Shown here in pieces: positions 17,783-26,169 of a stretch of DNA of 64,000 nt. Under the pieces are notes generated by a model. The model searched no databases. It saw only the letters and a list, made by a program, of their open reading frames with translations, and was not told the DNA's origin. Numbering within the stretch: position 1 is the first letter of the stretch; every line of letters begins with the position of its first letter. The translations under genes were made by a program, and so were the position numbers. Source of the stretch: Promethearchaeota archaeon (GTDB lineage: Archaea > Asgardarchaeota > Lokiarchaeia > Sigyniarchaeales > SOKP01); the NCBI GenBank assembly GCA_048939995.1, contig JBHLOY010000008.1, positions 106,835-170,834 on the forward strand. Reading direction: 5' to 3'.

Positions 17783-18199
17783 TTGGTAGAAAAAATGAAC
17801 TTTATTGTAAAAGACAAATCTTTTGAAAAGTTTATGATGATGACAATCTTGGGAACCACTGGAAGTGCAATGGATGTGGAAATGAATTTCTTTTTCACTT
17901 TCTGGGGATTAAACCTTTTAAAGAAGAAGTTTAAGCCCAAAGTAGCCGGAATGCCAACACCTATGAAAGGTATGGCAGCTGGAATGTTCAGGAAACGATT
18001 AAAGAAATTTGGTATGGAAGATCCATGGGCCTTGATCAAAGAAGCTATTGACGAGGGAAAAATGAAACTATATCCATGTCAAATGACAATGGATTTAATG
18101 AACATTAAAAGAGAAGAAATGTGGGATTTTGTAGAAGATCCTATCGGTGCAGCTGGTTTCATAGAAATGGCTGATGGTGGCCAAGTAGTCTCATTATAA
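17783..18199 (+). CDS. DsrE2-type (DrsE_2) sulfurtransferase
   Basis: FFFTFWGL and CQMTMDLM signatures. Confidence 0.85.
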   Translation: MVEKMNFIVKDKSFEKFMMMTILGTTGSAMDVEMNFFFTFWGLNLLKKKFKPKVAGMPTPMKGMAAGMFRKRLKKFGMEDPWALIKEAIDEGKMKLYPCQMTMDLMNIKREEMWDFVEDPIGAAGFIEMADGGQVVSL

Positions 18200-18239: not shown

Positions 18240-18800
18240 ATGTCTGATGTGGAAGAAGAACAACATCGGGAATTTATGATTGATGAGGATTTTGACTCAG
18301 AGTTTTTTAGAAATATTGAACGTAGATCAAATATATTAAAATGTATCCAATGCGGCACTTGTACTGCCAGTTGTGAAAGCGGAAGATGGACCGCATTAAA
18401 AACACGTTCAATTATCAGGAAAGTTGTGCTAGGAGATTTATCGGTATTAAAGGATCCTGATATTTGGTTATGCACAACATGTTATCAGTGTTATGAACGA
18501 TGCCCACGAGATGTAAGGCCTACAGATGTAATTATGGAATTACGAAATTATGCTACTAAGTTAGGAAACATTTCTCCTAATCATAGAGCGGTTGTTGGAT
18601 ACTTGAAACAATTTGGGCATGCAGTACCCATAAATGATGAGATAAGGAAGCGAAGAGTTGAATTAGGTTTAGAAGAATTACCTCCTACTGCATTCAAGTT
18701 TAAGCAAGAGGGGGATGATAAAGATTTAAAAAATATTGAAGAAAAAATGTTTGATTTACCTCCTGTTAAGGAGGAAAAAAAGAAAAAAGAGGAGGCATAA
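18240..18800 (+). CDS. hdrC: Heterodisulfide reductase subunit C
   Basis: CIQCGTCTASC and WLCTTCYQCYERCP; GHAVPIN. Confidence 0.95.
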   Translation: MSDVEEEQHREFMIDEDFDSEFFRNIERRSNILKCIQCGTCTASCESGRWTALKTRSIIRKVVLGDLSVLKDPDIWLCTTCYQCYERCPRDVRPTDVIMELRNYATKLGNISPNHRAVVGYLKQFGHAVPINDEIRKRRVELGLEELPPTAFKFKQEGDDKDLKNIEEKMFDLPPVKEEKKKKEEA

Positions 18801-18803
18801 AAA

Positions 18804-19718
18804 GTGGTAAAAGAAAAAACTTTTGCGTTTTTCCTTGGTTGTATCATGCCCAACCGTTATCCTGCGATTGAAAAGTCAACCAAATTTGTTATGGAAAAGT
18901 TAGGATACGAGATTTTAGACATGGAAAGAGCAACATGTTGTCCTGCACCTGGTGTATTTCGCTCATTTAACAAATTTGATTGGATGGTTGCAGCAGCTAG
19001 AAATCTTTGTATCGCTGAAAAAATGGATGCTGATATTTTAACAGTATGTAATGGTTGTTTTGGTACACTTCAAGAAGTAAATAAACATCTTAAAGAAAAT
19101 GAAGATCATAGAGATAAGGTAAATGAGAAGTTGAAAGAAATTGGAGATTATCAGTTTCAAGGAAAAATCAACGTCCGACATGTAGCAGAAGTTCTGGGAT
19201 ATGAGGTTGGACCTTGGGGGATTGAAGATTATATTGTAAGGAAACTGAATGCTAAGGCGGCTGTTCATTATGGATGCCACTTTTTGAAACCAACAAGGAT
19301 TCGAGAAATTGAAAGTTCTGAAGGACCAACAATTATCGAAGAATTCGTGGAAGTCTTAGGAATACAATCAGTTAGATTTAAAGAACAACTAACGTGCTGT
19401 GGCGCAGGAGGAGGTGTAAAAGCATATTCAGGTGATGCAAGTATGACAATTTTTGCGGAAAAAATGAAGAATATTGATGAAGTGAAGCCAGATTTTATAT
19501 TAGATATATGTCCCTTCTGTCATTTACAGTTCGAATCGGGACAGGATTACTTAAACAAAAACAAGGCATGTAATTATGATTACCCTGTAATCCACCTTTC
19601 TCAATTAGTTGCATATTGTATGGGCATGGATCAAGAATTTGTGGGTTTACAATACCAATTAATGGGTCGGGATTATATTTTTGGGGAAGTTGAAGCGAAA
19701 AGAGAGGAGGTAGCGTAA
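18804..19718 (+). CDS. hdrB: Heterodisulfide reductase subunit B
   Basis: Two CCG domains: FLGC, CCPAPG, CNGC, HYGCH, CCGAGGG, CPFCHLQF. Confidence 0.95.
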   Translation: MVKEKTFAFFLGCIMPNRYPAIEKSTKFVMEKLGYEILDMERATCCPAPGVFRSFNKFDWMVAAARNLCIAEKMDADILTVCNGCFGTLQEVNKHLKENEDHRDKVNEKLKEIGDYQFQGKINVRHVAEVLGYEVGPWGIEDYIVRKLNAKAAVHYGCHFLKPTRIREIESSEGPTIIEEFVEVLGIQSVRFKEQLTCCGAGGGVKAYSGDASMTIFAEKMKNIDEVKPDFILDICPFCHLQFESGQDYLNKNKACNYDYPVIHLSQLVAYCMGMDQEFVGLQYQLMGRDYIFGEVEAKREEVA

Positions 19719-21749
19719 ATGACTGTCAAAGAAGAAAAAGTAAAAGAGACAAATGACACTCAAGAGTCATTAGAGCATGAGGAGAGTGAACCTAGAATTG
19801 GAGTGTTTGTTTGTCACTGTGGGCATAATATAGCTGGTACTGTTGATGTTGCTGAAGTTGCAGAATATGCAAAAAGTTTACCGAATGTAGTGAAAGCAGA
19901 ACATTATATGTTTATGTGTAGTAAACCAGGCGTCCAAATGGTTAAGGATTCAATTAAAGAATTAGGAGTAGATAGAACTGTGGTTGCCTCATGTTCAAAA
20001 AATCAACACGGAAGAACCTTTGCTAATGCCATCCAAGAGATGGGTTTAAACAAGCATCGTCATCAACAAGTAAATATTAGAGAATTTGATAGTTGGGTGC
20101 ATCAAAAAGAAAAGGATAAAGCAACTAAAAAAGCAGAAAGATTAATTGAAGCAGGGGTCAATAGAGCACGTAAATTAGAAGATGTAGAAACTCGGAGAAT
20201 TCCTACAACCAAAGCTGCATTAGTTATTGGTGCAGGTATTGCCGGTCTTCGAGCAGCCCACGATCTAGCAGAATTAGGGATTCCAGTTTATCTGGTTGAG
20301 CGAGAATCAACTATAGGAGGACATATGACCCAATTAAACAAGACCTTTCCAACCTTAGAATGTCCCCAGTGTTCCATATCTCCACTTACTAATGGAGTTG
20401 CGAATCATCCATTAATCGAACTTTATACAAATGCTCAAATTAAAGAAGTAGAAGGTTCAATGGGTAATTTTGAAGTGGAAATTGAAATCAAACCACGATA
20501 TGTTAAAGATAATTGTACTTCGTGCGGGGAATGTGCAATTCATTGCCCTGTAGAAGTTCCCAGTGAATGGGATAAAGGCATGTCTATAAGAAAGGCTATT
20601 TATAAAGCATATCCTCAAGCTATCCCAGCCACATATGTGAGAGACAAGAAAAATTGTATCGAGTGTAATACATGTATTAATGTTTGTCCAGTTCAAGCTG
20701 TTGATTTTTCAATGGAACCAGAAACAAAAAGATTTAAAATAGGCTCTATAGTTGTAGCTACTGGGTATGATGAATACGATCCTTCCGAAATTGAAGCTTA
20801 TCATTATAAACAAGAGGGTTATGAAAATGTTATAACCCAACTGCAGGTAGAACGGATGCTTGCTCCTGGCTCTTTAACTAACAGTCAAGTACTAAGACCT
20901 TCTGACGCTAAAATCCCAAAAAATGTAGTGATGATTCAATGCGTTGGAAGTAGAAATGATCAGGTAGGGAATATATATTGCACAGGAGTTTGTTGTAAAT
21001 TTGCGATTAAAAATGCTCGAATTATTAAGGAAATGTATCCTAATTCTAATGTTACCATATGTTATATAGATGTAAGAACTCCTGGGTTAAATTTTGAGGA
21101 ATTATATAAATCCTCCCAGGAAGTGGGAGTACGATTCATAAGGGGAAGACCTTCTGAAATTCTTCGAGATCCTATTTCTGGAGAATTAAGGGTAATAGTT
21201 GAAGATACATTAAGTCAAACACCATTGAAGTTAAAAGCAGATTTAGTAGTATTATCTGCAGCCATGGTTCCACCAGAAGGAATCGGTCCTTTAGGTTCAA
21301 AATTGCATGTTCTTCGATCTAAAGAAGGGTTTTTAAAAGAATTTCATATTAAGATGAATCCCACCTTAAGCAGTAAAGGTGGTATTTTTTTAGCTGGAGC
21401 AATTCAAGGTCCAAAAGACATTTCAGAGTCTGTAGCTCATGCTGGAAATGCTGCTGCATTAGCAGCTGCTCCCTTAGTAAAAGGATATATTGAAAAAGAA
21501 ATGTTAATCCCATCCATAGATTTAGACTTATGTGTTAAATGCGGGCTTTGTAAAACTGTATGTGCTCCTGCTGCGATTGATATAAATGAGGATGGAATCC
21601 CTAAGATTAATGAGATAGCATGTAAATCATGTGGTATGTGTATGCCTGCATGTCCAACAGGGGCTATTCAATTGTTAAATTTTAGTGATGAGCAACTATT
21701 AGATGAAATTGTTGCTGTATCTGGAGGTGTTATATGCGAAAATGAGTGA
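19719..21749 (+). CDS. hdrA: Heterodisulfide reductase subunit A (flavin-bifurcating type), Cys form
   Basis: CHCG.NI, GAGIAG, KTFPTLECPQC, inserted and C-terminal 2x[4Fe-4S] domains, CVGSR...CTGVCC, ERM, GPKDI. Confidence 0.96.
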   Translation: MTVKEEKVKETNDTQESLEHEESEPRIGVFVCHCGHNIAGTVDVAEVAEYAKSLPNVVKAEHYMFMCSKPGVQMVKDSIKELGVDRTVVASCSKNQHGRTFANAIQEMGLNKHRHQQVNIREFDSWVHQKEKDKATKKAERLIEAGVNRARKLEDVETRRIPTTKAALVIGAGIAGLRAAHDLAELGIPVYLVERESTIGGHMTQLNKTFPTLECPQCSISPLTNGVANHPLIELYTNAQIKEVEGSMGNFEVEIEIKPRYVKDNCTSCGECAIHCPVEVPSEWDKGMSIRKAIYKAYPQAIPATYVRDKKNCIECNTCINVCPVQAVDFSMEPETKRFKIGSIVVATGYDEYDPSEIEAYHYKQEGYENVITQLQVERMLAPGSLTNSQVLRPSDAKIPKNVVMIQCVGSRNDQVGNIYCTGVCCKFAIKNARIIKEMYPNSNVTICYIDVRTPGLNFEELYKSSQEVGVRFIRGRPSEILRDPISGELRVIVEDTLSQTPLKLKADLVVLSAAMVPPEGIGPLGSKLHVLRSKEGFLKEFHIKMNPTLSSKGGIFLAGAIQGPKDISESVAHAGNAAALAAAPLVKGYIEKEMLIPSIDLDLCVKCGLCKTVCAPAAIDINEDGIPKINEIACKSCGMCMPACPTGAIQLLNFSDEQLLDEIVAVSGGVICENE

Positions 21750-22194
21750 ATGTGAATATATCAAGCCCGAAGTGCTCGAGAAGATGGAAAATATTGTAGT
21801 GTTTATGTGTAATGAGTGTGGCCAAGGTTCTGCAAATACAGCTGGAGTAGCTCGAATGGCATATAATCCAGCTATACGTATAGTTCGAGTCCAATGTACG
21901 GGTCAAGTAGGACCGATCCAAATTATGGATGCATTGAGTAATGGAGCTGACGCAGTTGCATGTGTCGGATGCTGTCTAGGGGCATGCCATTTCTTCAATG
22001 GTAATATTCTTTCAATGCACCGAATTAAGCTTATGAAGAAGTTATTCAAAGAATTAGGCTACAGTGACCAAATTATTAACCAATACACCTCACGAGCTGC
22101 AGAAGGTGAAACTGCAGTAGGTGATTTTGAAGATATTGTAGAGAGATTAGCAACTGCAATTAGAGAGGAGGCGACATTCAAAGATGGATGTTAA
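21742..22194 (+). CDS. mvhD: MvhD [2Fe-2S] subunit, Cys form
   Basis: FMCNEC, RVQCTG, GADAV...GCCLGACHF; start moved to ATG 21742 behind GGAGGTG. Confidence 0.88.
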   Translation: MSECEYIKPEVLEKMENIVVFMCNECGQGSANTAGVARMAYNPAIRIVRVQCTGQVGPIQIMDALSNGADAVACVGCCLGACHFFNGNILSMHRIKLMKKLFKELGYSDQIINQYTSRAAEGETAVGDFEDIVERLATAIREEATFKDGC

Positions 22195-23419
22195 AGTTTT
22201 TCAATTTAATGGATGCAATAAATGCTTTAATGAAACTATTCTATTAAAAGCAGATTCAAACCATAAAATTGGGTTTGTATCTAATCCTAGGAATTGGAAA
22301 GAGGAGAAAATTGATGTTTCTGTAATTACGGGTTATTTATTACCAGAGGATAAAGAGACTTTAGATAAAATTATAAGAAATTCAACAAAAATTATTGCAT
22401 ATGGAGATTGTAGCGCTACTGGTGGAGTTTTTGCCTTATCCAATCAACGGGGTCATAAAGTAACACCTTTAAGAAAGATGCAGGAAGGTATCTTGAATGT
22501 GTATGGTTGTTTGGGTGAAATAGAAGAACTAGAAGCATTAATTATAGGTAAAGATTTACCGAAACTAAATAATTTATGTATTGTATGTGGAAGAAAGAAA
22601 ACGTGTGATTATTTAGAAGAAGTCAAGCGTCAAATAGAATTAGATGACGAAGAGAAATGTTTTAATGATCTTGGATACTTATGTAATGGATTTATAGCAA
22701 AAGAATGTAAAGAACGATGTATCGATTACAATGCGCCCTGTCGTGGTTGCAAACCTATAATTGAACGTTCAGGAATCAGAATGCTGGGAATGTTTGGAAC
22801 TTTAATGGGAAATATTGAAGTCTCTACAGAGCATTCTGAAAAGGGAGCTACAGATAAACTAGCAGATAATGATGACGATGTTACGGCAAGTTTACCTGAT
22901 ATCGTTGGTAATTTCTTTAGATTCACGTTATCTACCTCTGGTTTGCCTAAAGGGAGAATCAACTCTTCAGGAAGCCTATTAGAAGATGTATTTACAGGGA
23001 GATTAATAGAAGAATTACCTTTAATTACGGGTTTATTGGGGGGAGATCGCTCGATTTCACTAACGCTTAAAGTCCTAGAGACCTATGAAGAAGGTAATAA
23101 TATAGAAGTAAGTGAGACTACAAAACAATATCGAAAGGAATTATTAGAGTTAGAAAATGAATTACTAACAACAATAGAATCCAAAGATCCAAAAAAATAT
23201 AAAGAGGTGACTGATAAGATTCGAAAAATTGCTGGTAATATGAATTTATCTAATCTCTACTATGGGGGATTTAAATCACAAATTAATGAGAATGATAATT
23301 TTGAGGACTATAAAACCCATGTTTTTGATGTGGTTGAAGGTACTTATAAAAATGGTTCGATTGAGCTTACAATTGATTCCATAGGTATTGTAAAAGAAAT
23401 AAAAATTAAAGAGGGTTAA
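22184..23419 (+). CDS. MvhG-like Fe-S small subunit fused to a degenerate, Cys-free NiFe large-subunit-like domain
   Basis: GCNKC, AYGDCSATGG, YGC, CIVC, CF..LG.LC.G, C...C, CRGC; C-terminal LEDVFTGRLIEELPLITGLLGG resembles the large-subunit L1 region without Cys. Confidence 0.75.
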   Translation: MDVKVFQFNGCNKCFNETILLKADSNHKIGFVSNPRNWKEEKIDVSVITGYLLPEDKETLDKIIRNSTKIIAYGDCSATGGVFALSNQRGHKVTPLRKMQEGILNVYGCLGEIEELEALIIGKDLPKLNNLCIVCGRKKTCDYLEEVKRQIELDDEEKCFNDLGYLCNGFIAKECKERCIDYNAPCRGCKPIIERSGIRMLGMFGTLMGNIEVSTEHSEKGATDKLADNDDDVTASLPDIVGNFFRFTLSTSGLPKGRINSSGSLLEDVFTGRLIEELPLITGLLGGDRSISLTLKVLETYEEGNNIEVSETTKQYRKELLELENELLTTIESKDPKKYKEVTDKIRKIAGNMNLSNLYYGGFKSQINENDNFEDYKTHVFDVVEGTYKNGSIELTIDSIGIVKEIKIKEG

Positions 23420-23421
23420 AC

Positions 23422-25890
23422 ATGAGTTTTGAATTATTAAAAGTTGAAATTGTAGACGCTGGCCTTTGTCAAGGATGCGGCTTATGTGCTGGATCGTGTA
23501 AGCATATTGAGATGGAAGTAAAGCGTCCATCCCTTAAAGACTACTGTATTTTAGAGAGAGATGGTCAAGATTGTGGAAAGTGTTATCAGAACTGCCCTCA
23601 AGTTATTCAAAAGAAGTTTGAGGAAAAAGAGCCGTTAGCTTTATATTCTTTAAGGAGTAAGAATCTTGATGTTCTATCTAAAGCTGCTAGTGGAGGCTTT
23701 ATCACTACTTTTGTTAAGGAACTTTTAGAGAACCAGACACTTAAGAAAATAGTAATGGTACATGAAGAGGATGAAAAACCAATTGCGGAAATTGTTTCAA
23801 ATCCTGAAGAAGCGGTTAAAAAAGCAGGAGTAGTTTATGGTAGATCTGGAGTGTTAGAGCGGTTAGTAGAAATTACAGGCGAATCTTTTGATCAAATAGG
23901 TATTGTTGGTGTGCCCTGTGAAATGCGTGGAGCTGCTGAAATAGAAGAGGAAATGAAACGGGACATTCTAAAAATTGGATTGTTTTGTAATTCACAAATT
24001 CGTACCGAAGAAACAGATAAAGGCTTAGTATGCTCTCCATGCTGTAATGGCTGTCCTTCTGGAGTAAATGCTCAGGGATATATTTCATTAATACGTCAGG
24101 GCAAATATCAAGATGCTGTAAATCTAATTAGAGAAAACAATCCGCTACCATCAATATGTGGTCGCATTTGTACTAATGAATGTGAATATGGATGTACTTT
24201 AATCGGAGACGACCATCCCGTCGCAATTCGAGAATTAAAGAAGTTTGTAACGGAGTGGGAGATCGAAAAAGCAAAAAAAGAAGTAAAAAATATACCGAAA
24301 TTGAAGAAGAATGCTAAAAAAGTGGCAATTATTGGATCTGGTCCCGCAGGTTTAACTGCGGCTTATTATTTGAGAAGAATGGGATATGTAGCAACTATTT
24401 TCGAAAAAACCGATCAGACAGGAGGGATGCTACGATTTGGAGTACCCCAATTTCGATTACCTAACTATGTCTTAGATTATGACGTTGAAAGGATAATAGA
24501 ATCTGGAGTTAAAGTAGAACTTAATAAACCATTAGGACATGAAATGACCATTGAGGATTTGAAAAATAGTGGTTTTGAGGCAATTTTTATAGCAACAGGT
24601 CAATATAAGCCTCGAACCTTGCATTTAGAAGGAGAAGAGCTTCCAAATGTATTTGTGGCAATCAGTTTCTTAATGGATAGAAAATACCGTTATTGGGAAA
24701 ATAAAGAAGAATTTAAAGGAAAAACTATAGGGATAATTGGAGGTGGCCCTGTTGCTGTTGATGTTGCTCAAACTGCATTAAGGTTAGGTGCAGAAAAAAT
24801 TCATTTAGTAGATATAATGTCAGAAGAACAACTAGAATTAGTTTTAAAGGATATTCCTGAAAATGAAATGGCTTTCATGCAATATCACTTCAAAACATCC
24901 ACTTCAAAAATTACACAGAATGATGATGGCAAATTAGTTTTGAATTGTTATAACATAGAATGGGGAAAACCAGATGAGAATGGAAGGAGACCATTAAATA
25001 AAGTACAACAATCCGAATTTGAAATTCCTATTGATAATATCGTAATAGCAGTTGGTCAAGCCGTTGATTTTGACCAGATAGATGTTGCTACTAATAACAA
25101 GTTAGAAAAAGAACGCAATAAAATCAAGGTAAATGAAATTACTTTTGAAACAAATATTCCAGGAGTTTTTGCTGGAGGAGACATCATTAACAATTCCAAA
25201 GCTGTAGCTATTGCCGCAATAGCACACGGAAAAGAAGCAGCAATTTCAATAGACAAGTACTTGAAAGGAGAAAATTTAGTAGATGGACGATATAAGAGAG
25301 TAAATTCATTTTTCACTGGACCTAATAGACCTCCTAAAGATTACTCTTTGAAACCAGAATCCTTAGAGGAAGCAACTGAAGAGATAAATTGGTCTTTTGA
25401 AGAGATAGATAAGATGTTTAATGAAGATATGGCTTTACAAGAGGCACGTAGATGTTTAAGTTGTAATCATTTCTGTTCCCACTGTCAAGATTTCCCAGCA
25501 ATTTATTCAGATTTAACTGCAGGGGAAATCGGTTCACAAAAGGGATATACTACCGTTGTAGTATGGACTGAACGTGGGAAAGAACTTGTTGAACAGGCAA
25601 TTCAAAAAGGATTGTTTGAACAAGGTAAAGTGAATGAACAAGAACTCAAAACTGCTATCAATTTGAAATCAAAGAGAGAACTTATGATTTTTAAAAAGAC
25701 TCCACGACAATATGTATTGGATTATATTACACTTCAAGGGCCTAGTACAATAAATGATATAGCAAAAAATACTGGAATCGAGGCAAAAAAAGTTAGATAT
25801 GAAGCACTTCGTTTAGTCCAGTTAATGGAATTAGAAATGAAAGCAGATCAGGATATGGATGAACCAGTATTTTCAATTATGTGTGATTAA
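23422..25890 (+). CDS. Chimeric FrhB-family protein with inserted GltD/NfnB-like NAD(P)H:Fe-S oxidoreductase and C-terminal winged helix
   Basis: N-terminal ferredoxin, SGGFIT, VGVPC, IGLFC | CSPCCNGCP, NPLPSICGRIC, GSGPAG, GGGPVAVD, FAGGD, EARRCLSC | CSHCQDF..SDLTAGEIGS..GYTTVVVWTERG | GPSTINDIAKNTGIEAKKVRY. Confidence 0.8.
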   Translation: MSFELLKVEIVDAGLCQGCGLCAGSCKHIEMEVKRPSLKDYCILERDGQDCGKCYQNCPQVIQKKFEEKEPLALYSLRSKNLDVLSKAASGGFITTFVKELLENQTLKKIVMVHEEDEKPIAEIVSNPEEAVKKAGVVYGRSGVLERLVEITGESFDQIGIVGVPCEMRGAAEIEEEMKRDILKIGLFCNSQIRTEETDKGLVCSPCCNGCPSGVNAQGYISLIRQGKYQDAVNLIRENNPLPSICGRICTNECEYGCTLIGDDHPVAIRELKKFVTEWEIEKAKKEVKNIPKLKKNAKKVAIIGSGPAGLTAAYYLRRMGYVATIFEKTDQTGGMLRFGVPQFRLPNYVLDYDVERIIESGVKVELNKPLGHEMTIEDLKNSGFEAIFIATGQYKPRTLHLEGEELPNVFVAISFLMDRKYRYWENKEEFKGKTIGIIGGGPVAVDVAQTALRLGAEKIHLVDIMSEEQLELVLKDIPENEMAFMQYHFKTSTSKITQNDDGKLVLNCYNIEWGKPDENGRRPLNKVQQSEFEIPIDNIVIAVGQAVDFDQIDVATNNKLEKERNKIKVNEITFETNIPGVFAGGDIINNSKAVAIAAIAHGKEAAISIDKYLKGENLVDGRYKRVNSFFTGPNRPPKDYSLKPESLEEATEEINWSFEEIDKMFNEDMALQEARRCLSCNHFCSHCQDFPAIYSDLTAGEIGSQKGYTTVVVWTERGKELVEQAIQKGLFEQGKVNEQELKTAINLKSKRELMIFKKTPRQYVLDYITLQGPSTINDIAKNTGIEAKKVRYEALRLVQLMELEMKADQDMDEPVFSIMCD

Positions 25891-25929: not shown

Positions 25930-26169
25930 ATGAAATTTGATCAAGAGTTAAATGTATGCGGGTTAGTATGTCCCGTTCCAGCGCTTAAGACAAAGAAGGA
26001 ATTAATGAAAATGAGGCCTGGAGCAGTTTTAAAAGTAATCACTGACTACAAACCCGCATCTGAGAGTGTTCCTAGAGACTTAGCTAAACAAACTAAACAC
26101 AAACATTTAGGAACCGAATTCATCGAAGATGAAGAACAATGGTGGATTTATTTTGAAGCTGTTAAATAA
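25930..26169 (+). CDS. tusA: TusA/SirA sulfur carrier (second copy, closes the operon)
   Basis: LNVCGLVCPVP, VLKVITD. Confidence 0.9.
   Translation: MKFDQELNVCGLVCPVPALKTKKELMKMRPGAVLKVITDYKPASESVPRDLAKQTKHKHLGTEFIEDEEQWWIYFEAVK

Follow-up and report, generated by a model that had tools for sequence, protein, structure and literature searches.

Genes at the locus and the fused subunit MvhGx

The DNA analysed here is a 64,000-nucleotide window (the whole stretch, in which all coordinates below are given) on contig C38 of the 3.75-Mb, 98%-complete genome of a Promethearchaeota archaeon, with a GC content of about 30%, that is, low-GC Asgard DNA. Its plus strand carries a single operon of a dsrE-like gene, hdrC, hdrB, hdrA, mvhD, mvhGx, frhB::gltD and tusA. 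We focus on mvhGx, whose product joins an MvhG-type hydrogenase small subunit to a cysteine-free C-terminal tail that has the character of a much reduced [NiFe]-hydrogenase large subunit (LSU). The gene and its parts are as follows.

22184..23419, + strand: mvhGx, a 411-residue MvhG-type small subunit with a putative mini large subunit (open reading frame; Pfam Oxidored_q6)
22184..22558, + strand: residues 1–125, flavodoxin-like N-domain with the proximal-cluster cysteines C11, C14, C76 and C109
22559..22951, + strand: residues 126–256, Cys-rich domain and C-terminal FxxFT motif (profile alignment to MvhG chains)
22952..23416, + strand: residues 257–411, Cys-free putative mini large subunit of four core helices, a loop and a beta-hairpin
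22979..23164, + strand: residues 266–327, probable equivalent of the 'GR..EEaP.I..RxCGxC' helix and the next two helices (hhalign, hmmsearch)
23207..23293, + strand: residues 342–370, probable equivalent of an LSU helix and the 'GGK..HP....GG' loop (weak in hhalign; second HMMER stretch)
23321..23416, + strand: residues 380–411, probable equivalent of the LSU C-terminal 'EAPRG..H....D..G.I' beta-hairpin (hhalign; structural alignments)

The small-subunit part of MvhGx is complete. All 12 cysteines for three [4Fe-4S] clusters are conserved, with C132, C135, C159, C167, C175, C179, C186 and C189 as the medial and distal ligands and C141 as an extra residue. Pfam Oxidored_q6 (PF01058) matches residues 18–110 with 42.9 bits against a cut-off of 27, and no other Pfam family matches MvhGx above threshold. 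Searched against all PDB sequences, the MvhGx family profile finds the MvhG chains 9sw2_E (E 1.6e-18) and 5odc_E (E 3.6e-16), and 5odc_E also ranks first in an exhaustive structural search with the AlphaFold2 model described below (Z 15.1, 242 residues aligned, model 1–259). The NCBIfam VhuG model NF045875 scores 48 bits, under its cut-off of 450, and database names for the protein are 'F420-reducing hydrogenase gamma subunit' or 'NuoB family'. Judged from its sequence, MvhGx is a divergent relative of MvhG/VhuG (group 3c).

The MvhG match stops at residue 254–256, which is MvhG's own C-terminal FYxFTLP motif, and the extension therefore comprises residues 257–411 (window 22952–23416). An initial annotation, made from the sequence alone, had described a Cys-free tail after the MvhG-like Cys motifs at 22970–23419, equivalent to residues 263–411 plus the stop codon. 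The tail is borne out by the 411-residue translation, in which the final cysteine is C189 and residues 190–411 contain none, but its start has to be moved slightly upstream, to residue 257. The same annotation had noticed that the PGCPP motif of MvhG has become YGCLG, and this is indeed what the translation reads, with C109 kept; GCPP is still present in more distant relatives.

Sequence similarity of the tail to [NiFe] large subunits

The initial annotation also proposed that four segments of the tail parallel LSU segments in order. We find them at residues 266–287, 299–321, 346–363 and 390–408, all colinear with the LSU order. When a tail profile built on 133 family members was compared with a profile of 31 LSUs from Asgard genomes using hhalign, tail residues 266–324 aligned with LSU residues 43–101 (Prob 91.5%, P 8.8e-7, score 50.7), and a more diverse 46-sequence tail alignment gave Prob 93.6% and P 2e-7. 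These significant matches span 59–62 columns and include L1, the first of the two Ni-binding motifs. For comparison with the real score of 50.7, 100 column shuffles gave a mean of 14.4 (standard deviation 2.3, maximum 21.6), 100 block shuffles a maximum of 32.8, and the reversed tail 26.8. These profile comparisons indicate that the resemblance between the tail and LSUs exceeds chance.

A second sequence test used a tail-only profile (19 sequences) in an hmmsearch of 177,635 PDB sequences. The top match is FrhA of Methanosarcina barkeri (6qgt_A residues 45–107) with an E-value of 1.5e-5, and 13 of the 14 top matches are [NiFe] LSUs, all in one common register. A second HMMER stretch aligns tail positions 82–112 with FrhA 144–176, the region of the 'GGK..HP....GG' loop, and the tail profile matches MvhA of the source genome with P 1.1e-4. 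Taken alone, residues 380–411 have a single hhalign match, to LSU 360–399 (P 0.0045), residues 325–355 match LSU 129–157 (P 0.21), and the best match of residues 340–370 is LSU 144–181 (P 0.28, not significant by itself). The invariant tail residues R273, E277, G287, E302, R317 and L320 fall on conserved letters of the LSU consensus in hhalign; G287 aligns with the Gly of CGxC, and SRIYGSC persists at the L1 site of one distant relative. A protein-language-model look-up placed the tail near PF00374 clusters at 0.84 only, which is a lead and not evidence.

We also considered a circular permutation, in which residues 380–411 would correspond to the N-terminal hairpin of the LSU. This is disfavoured by the C-terminal hairpin being their sole hhalign match and by sequential structure alignments that take in the hairpin (149 residues within model 260–411); HMMER gives equally insignificant matches of these residues to both LSU hairpins.

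Predicted structure of the tail

An AlphaFold2 model built from the 46-sequence alignment has a mean predicted local distance difference test score (pLDDT) of 80.7 and a predicted template modelling score of 0.84, with pLDDT 81–98 in the tail; it replaced an earlier model from 39 sequences (at least 71% identical) with a mean pLDDT of 51. Besides a short helix, the modelled tail contains four longer ones, a loop and a three-stranded sheet. The whole model was compared exhaustively with 48,161 PDB chains and, in a second comparison, by re-alignment of Foldseek's top 1000. In plain Foldseek, small-subunit matches dominate, and LSU matches appear only in the exhaustive and re-aligned searches. 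The exhaustive comparison places 11 LSU/NuoD-family chains within the top 27; five of them align over 147–151 residues with a root mean square deviation (rmsd) of 2.6–3.1 Å, and the rest over 160–175 residues with an rmsd of 4.5–6.6 Å. Over both searches, nearly all of the tail matches LSU/NuoD chains with Z 10.9–13.7 and 147–158 aligned residues, and no other helical family is among the structural matches to the tail. Individual matches are listed below.

FrhA: Z 13.0 (exhaustive)
Actinobacterial LSU: Z 12.3, rmsd 2.9 Å, 147 residues (exhaustive)
[NiFeSe] LSU: Z 12.2, rmsd 3.1 Å, 151 residues (exhaustive)
HycE: Z 11.2, rmsd 2.7 Å, 149 residues, model 263–411 against chain 217–501 (exhaustive)
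Aquifex NuoD (7q5y_B): Z 10.9, rmsd 2.6 Å, 151 residues (exhaustive)
SHI alpha: Z 13.7 (re-aligned)
HycE (7z0s_E): Z 12.7, rmsd 2.5 Å, 149 residues, model 260–411 (re-aligned)
HoxH (5xf9_D): Z 11.9, rmsd 2.8 Å, 148 residues, chain 57–419 of 455 (re-aligned)

Further matches in the exhaustive search are complex I 49-kDa subunits, MbsL, HyhL, NdhH and Huc. The best-fitting alignments begin around or before L1 and end before L2, at residue 501 of 532 in HycE and 419 of 455 in HoxH.

Absence of a Ni-Fe site and conservation of the tail

Measured against a 435-residue Asgard reference LSU, the tail keeps roughly residues 38–104, 129–181 and 360–399. Missing are the sheet at the N-terminus, some 180 residues from the middle domain, and all that lies past the hairpin, including L2. 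The L1 site reads LLGGD(R/H) among 133 aligned family members, with G, Y or F at the first Cys position and mostly H, K or R at the second. None of the 133 has Cys at both L1 positions, and in 124 of them the tail is entirely Cys-free; a distant relative outside this set (lineage L104) retains only the second L1 Cys. The L2 motif DPCxxC(H/R) is absent, MvhGx ending about 10 residues past the hairpin that precedes L2 in LSUs. The absence of L1 and L2 noted in the initial annotation is thus confirmed, and a Ni-Fe site is excluded by ligand count. The central proposal of that annotation, a fused and nickel-free LSU remnant, likewise gains support from profile similarity (hhalign P 2e-7; FrhA E 1.5e-5) and from structural similarity. 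From the alignments and the model, we consider the tail to be a remnant homologue of LSUs and not a functional member of that family.

The tail does not look like a decaying sequence. Column identity is 0.80–0.83 in the tail, 0.76 in the N-domain and 0.90–0.92 in the MvhG C-terminal part, which is the best conserved. We found 357 homologues, nearly all of 411–413 residues; the full-length proteins have 411–413 residues in Lokiarchaeia and 403–435 elsewhere. Because the tail is conserved and the length uniform, these sequence data indicate that the tail is under purifying selection rather than in decay.

Distribution and gene context

The other genes of the operon in the window are listed below.

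17783..18199, + strand: dsrE-like gene, upstream of hdrC (Pfam DrsE_2, E 1.5e-22)
18240..21749, + strand: hdrC, hdrB and hdrA (Pfam Fer4 families, CCG, Pyr_redox_2 plus Fer4)
21703..22194, + strand: mvhD, [2Fe-2S] connector (Pfam FlpD, E 3.7e-32, residues 31–150)
23422..25890, + strand: frhB::gltD (Pfam FrhB_FdhB_N/C on both sides of Fer4_20 plus Pyr_redox_2)
25930..26169, + strand: tusA, downstream of frhB::gltD (Pfam TusA, E 4.7e-18)

The longest mvhD open reading frame shares 47 nt (21703–21749) with the end of hdrA, the FlpD match starts at residue 31, and orthologues have 132–139 residues; the true start is probably near 21784, about 27 codons later. The frhB::gltD product is presumed to be the electron-input module.

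The order (HdrC–HdrB–)HdrA–MvhD–MvhGx–FrhB-type is found in 40 of 40 loci examined, and an LSU gene is present in none of them. In the ten longest loci, the operon is bordered by genes for DsrE and/or TusA. Of 301 Asgard genomes sampled, 43 encode the tail, and in GTDB it is present at 69 species-representative loci, its carriers being mostly Promethearchaeota (Lokiarchaeia) and also Thorarchaeota, Sigynarchaeum and Harpocratesius. The cultured Promethearchaeum syntrophicum MK-D1 has an mvhGx operon (NZ_CP042905.2, 656–669 kb). Outside the Asgard archaea, the same operon is carried by a metagenome-assembled genome of Methermicoccaceae. There (GCA_054799155.1, locus L102, 781–8070; 54% GC, euryarchaeal) the operon is whole, dsrE–dsrE–hdrCBA–mvhD–mvhGx–frhB–tusA, which suggests that the module moved laterally between Asgard and Methanosarcinales-related archaea.

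The FrhB-type neighbour varies by lineage. In Lokiarchaeia it carries the GltD insertion, and synteny in the 40 loci places frhB::gltD always on the 3' side of mvhGx in this class; Thorarchaeia and Methermicoccaceae have a plain FrhB; Harpocratesius has the N-terminal 142 residues only; and in the unplaced lineage L104 a 126-residue protein joins the FrhB ferredoxin domain straight to the C-terminal winged helix-turn-helix, with the core deleted. The sole constant part is the N-terminal 2x[4Fe-4S] domain. At the two loci with the short forms (L104:9199–9579, 126 residues; L168:6470–6898, 142 residues), the flavin/F420 core of FrhB is gone and the operon contains no obvious electron-input enzyme. 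We found no longer proteins carrying the tail that could represent a full G–A fusion intermediate, which is weak evidence. Two candidate stand-alone tail genes (P0127 and P0139) are found on contigs 1140 and 774 nt long, with the upstream part disrupted or frame-shifted and are uninterpretable.

True hydrogenases in the same genomes

The source genome has two true LSU genes, both away from mvhGx. One comes after hdrA::mvhD and a 229-residue MvhG, and the other after a 437-residue small subunit and before hdrC/hdrB-like genes. Both adjacent small subunits stop at the MvhG C-terminal motif and have no tail; the 437-residue protein is long because its Cys-rich domain is duplicated. The two Cys-rich medial/distal copies of this protein (L004:4977–6290) lie at residues ~180–225 and ~315–385, its counterpart in MK-D1 has 453 residues, and from its sequence it possibly holds five clusters.

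Selenoprotein VhuU is known in Lokiarchaeota. The second LSU of the source genome (434 residues; L004:6294–7783, contig C17 about 420293–421782) has L1 but ends in '...KLPDPWIK' without DPCxxC, an ending shared by 19 further sampled Asgard LSUs. About 30 nt past it is an open reading frame of ~50 codons with an in-frame TGA (context FDC-TGA-LSCAAH), which looks like a VhuU-type selenopeptide that would supply L2 in trans. At the other locus, mvhG (229 residues) and mvhA (434 residues) beside hdrA::mvhD (L005:5324–7318, contig C13 about 242323–244317) are in the same frame with only a TGA between them. Upstream of codon 96, that mvhA frame lacks any ATG, GTG or TTG, and the nearest relative has ATG where the source genome has GTA; the start-less mvhA could be a dying gene, or be explained by a sequencing error, by a non-canonical start or by read-through. 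In MK-D1, a single LSU gene lies 3 Mb from mvhGx in an SSU–HdrC–HdrB–LSU operon (SSU, small subunit), and its SSU has no tail. MK-D1 has been described with one hydrogenase, MvhADG-HdrABC, and the mvhGx operon was not singled out (Imachi et al., PMC7015854).

Proposed origin and role of the remnant

We propose, with a probability of roughly 0.8, that the tail is a true [NiFe] LSU remnant which arose by fusion of mvhG to mvhA and has been kept for its partner surface in a donor-switched complex. The canonical gene order is mvhD–G–A, and the remnant occupies exactly the position of mvhA. In 6 of 25 related pairs, mvhG and mvhA are in frame with a stop codon and 0–3 codons between them, so that one stop-codon loss would fuse them. 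An mvhD–mvhG–mvhA set would thus have lost the stop codon between G and A, after which the A part would have been trimmed, leaving four core helices together with the 'GGK..HP..GG' loop and the C-terminal hairpin; the N-terminal sheet, the middle domain of ~180 residues, the L2-bearing C-terminal helix and every metal-binding cysteine would have been lost. The remnant may have been kept because the small subunit still requires the surface of its former partner: the remnant would lie over the face of the 'proximal' [4Fe-4S] cluster and stabilise the three-cluster wire, and might also offer a docking surface for the FrhB ferredoxin domain. HdrABC–MvhD–MvhGx would no longer be fed by H2 and would take electrons from the adjacent FrhB-type protein, which in Lokiarchaeia may use its GltD module to oxidise NAD(P)H. 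Because the three-cluster wire and MvhD are kept, the exit toward HdrA is probably unchanged. The structural-cap role and the switch from H2 to another donor, both put forward in the initial annotation, would fit an invariant operon that has an FrhB-type gene and no LSU gene.

Several observations weigh against this interpretation. The significance of the sequence match is limited to the first ~60 residues of the tail, the later segments reaching only P 0.0045, 0.21 and 0.28. PF00374 gives no match to the tail in hmmscan up to E 10, where the matches are weak and unrelated; no NCBIfam model matches it; and a single-sequence phmmer search with residues 196–411 against 1.84 billion representatives returned 25 proteins, all members or fragments of the family and no LSU. 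The fold was predicted from 46 sequences, the mere arrangement of a helical bundle can yield Z values of ~13, and the superposition covers the fold of the tail and not its placement on the small subunit relative to MvhA. The best solved sequence match is FrhA, with MvhA at E 0.2, so the remnant may stem from either an MvhA or an FrhA-like group-3 lineage. The cap or docking role and the independence from H2 are likewise things that we infer.

A rival explanation is that the tail is an unrelated helical domain that resembles LSUs by convergence or chance: it has no Pfam match, its later segments are weak in sequence, and helical bundles often give middling Z-scores. Yet independent profile searches (P 2e-7 and E 1.5e-5) agree on one register, the four segments are colinear, the invariant residues are those conserved in LSUs, other helical families are absent from the top structural matches to the tail, and the remnant is located exactly where mvhA follows mvhG. 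We therefore regard an unrelated domain as very unlikely. It is at least as improbable that MvhGx is still a hydrogenase small subunit that pairs in trans with a full LSU encoded elsewhere, the tail being an accessory. The source genome does have two LSU genes and MK-D1 one, and the small-subunit part of MvhGx retains all 12 cluster ligands, but every LSU gene is accompanied by that of a small subunit of its own, none of the 40 loci links an LSU gene to mvhGx, and a tail that fills the LSU site would prevent a second LSU from binding.

A different weighting of the evidence would make the mini LSU mainly an adaptor for electron entry. The N-terminal 2x[4Fe-4S] domain of the FrhB-type protein would dock on the remnant and feed the former proximal cluster, with electrons then following the hydrogenase wire in its original direction, from the proximal to the distal cluster, MvhD and HdrA, so that a protein donor replaces the Ni-Fe site. 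MvhD is kept and the C-terminal part of MvhG is the best conserved, so the distal exit is probably unchanged, and the N-terminal ferredoxin domain is always there in a neighbour that otherwise varies across lineages. Against such a contact, FrhB sits at the distal end in the solved Frh structure. In the Fdh–Hdr and Elp–Hdr complexes, moreover, FdhB/ElpB feed MvhD/ElpC and HdrA with no MvhG present (PMC12350162). We consider the adaptor doubtful as the main function. Equally tentative is a fuller version of the remnant hypothesis, in which the mini LSU is the minimal LSU piece that holds the Fe-S wire and a socket where the FrhB ferredoxin domain plugs in at the former Ni-Fe site, carrying NAD(P)H electrons to a bifurcating Hdr that acts on protein-bound sulfur.

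Comparison with known systems

The MvhAGD-HdrABC complex of hydrogenotrophic methanogens (PDB 5ODC, 9SW2) shares with the present operon HdrABC, MvhD, a three-cluster MvhG-type subunit and the order D–G–(A), and its MvhG is the best match of MvhGx residues 1–256 in both sequence and structure. The operon described here differs in that it has no separate MvhA; the A part is fused, reduced from ~470 to 155 residues, and without Ni-Fe ligands, and the operon instead includes genes for an FrhB-type protein and for the sulfur carriers DsrE and TusA.

Complex I (NuoD/49-kDa, with NuoB), MbsL/MbxL and NdhH provide known examples of nickel-free LSU homologues. Like the tail, they no longer have a Ni-Fe site but retain the fold as a module for structure and electron transfer. 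In contrast to the tail, they derive from group 4, are full-size (about 370–600 residues) and separate from the small subunit, and have gained a quinone or sulfur site, and NuoB keeps one cluster.

The closest functional precedent is ElpA of Methanothermobacter marburgensis, a truncated, molybdopterin-free FdhA in the F420H2-driven Elp–Hdr complex, where electrons enter through an FrhB/FdhB-type flavoprotein (PMC12350162). The shared logic is that a dead catalytic subunit is kept in the donor arm of Hdr after the donor has changed. The likeness is one of function and not of family, since the ancestor of ElpA is a molybdopterin formate dehydrogenase, and ElpA forms a polypeptide of its own and works without an MvhG-type wire. 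For MvhGx, the tie to an Hdr complex is one of gene linkage. A group-3 small subunit with a C-terminal fused domain also occurs in the HyhS–HydA fusions of group F hybrid hydrogenases in archaea, including Lokiarchaeia (PMC11216029); in those proteins the small subunit is joined to an active [FeFe] H-cluster domain, and the neighbouring gene encodes a full [NiFe] LSU. In the literature searched, we found no description of a 155-residue group-3 LSU remnant fused to MvhG.

Implications

The combination of MvhD, MvhG and HdrABC is often read as a hydrogenase in Asgard reconstructions. The mvhGx operon has these genes without a catalytic subunit, and H2 metabolism may therefore be over-called. The remnant would show that an LSU can become nickel-free by a second route, starting from group 3, with a reduction in size far beyond that in the complex I/Mbx lineage. 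It points to the ~150 LSU residues that are kept once catalysis is gone, which bears on subunit interfaces and on the design of Fe-S wires in protein design. In evolutionary terms, the operon would document a change of electron donor in a bifurcating complex that once depended on H2, mirroring ElpA, and its presence in cultured P. syntrophicum MK-D1 makes these ideas testable. Should the remnant prove to be a socket that receives the ferredoxin domain of FrhB, a cultured Asgard archaeon would offer a view of a hydrogenase halfway through its conversion to a dehydrogenase, in parallel with how complex I arose.

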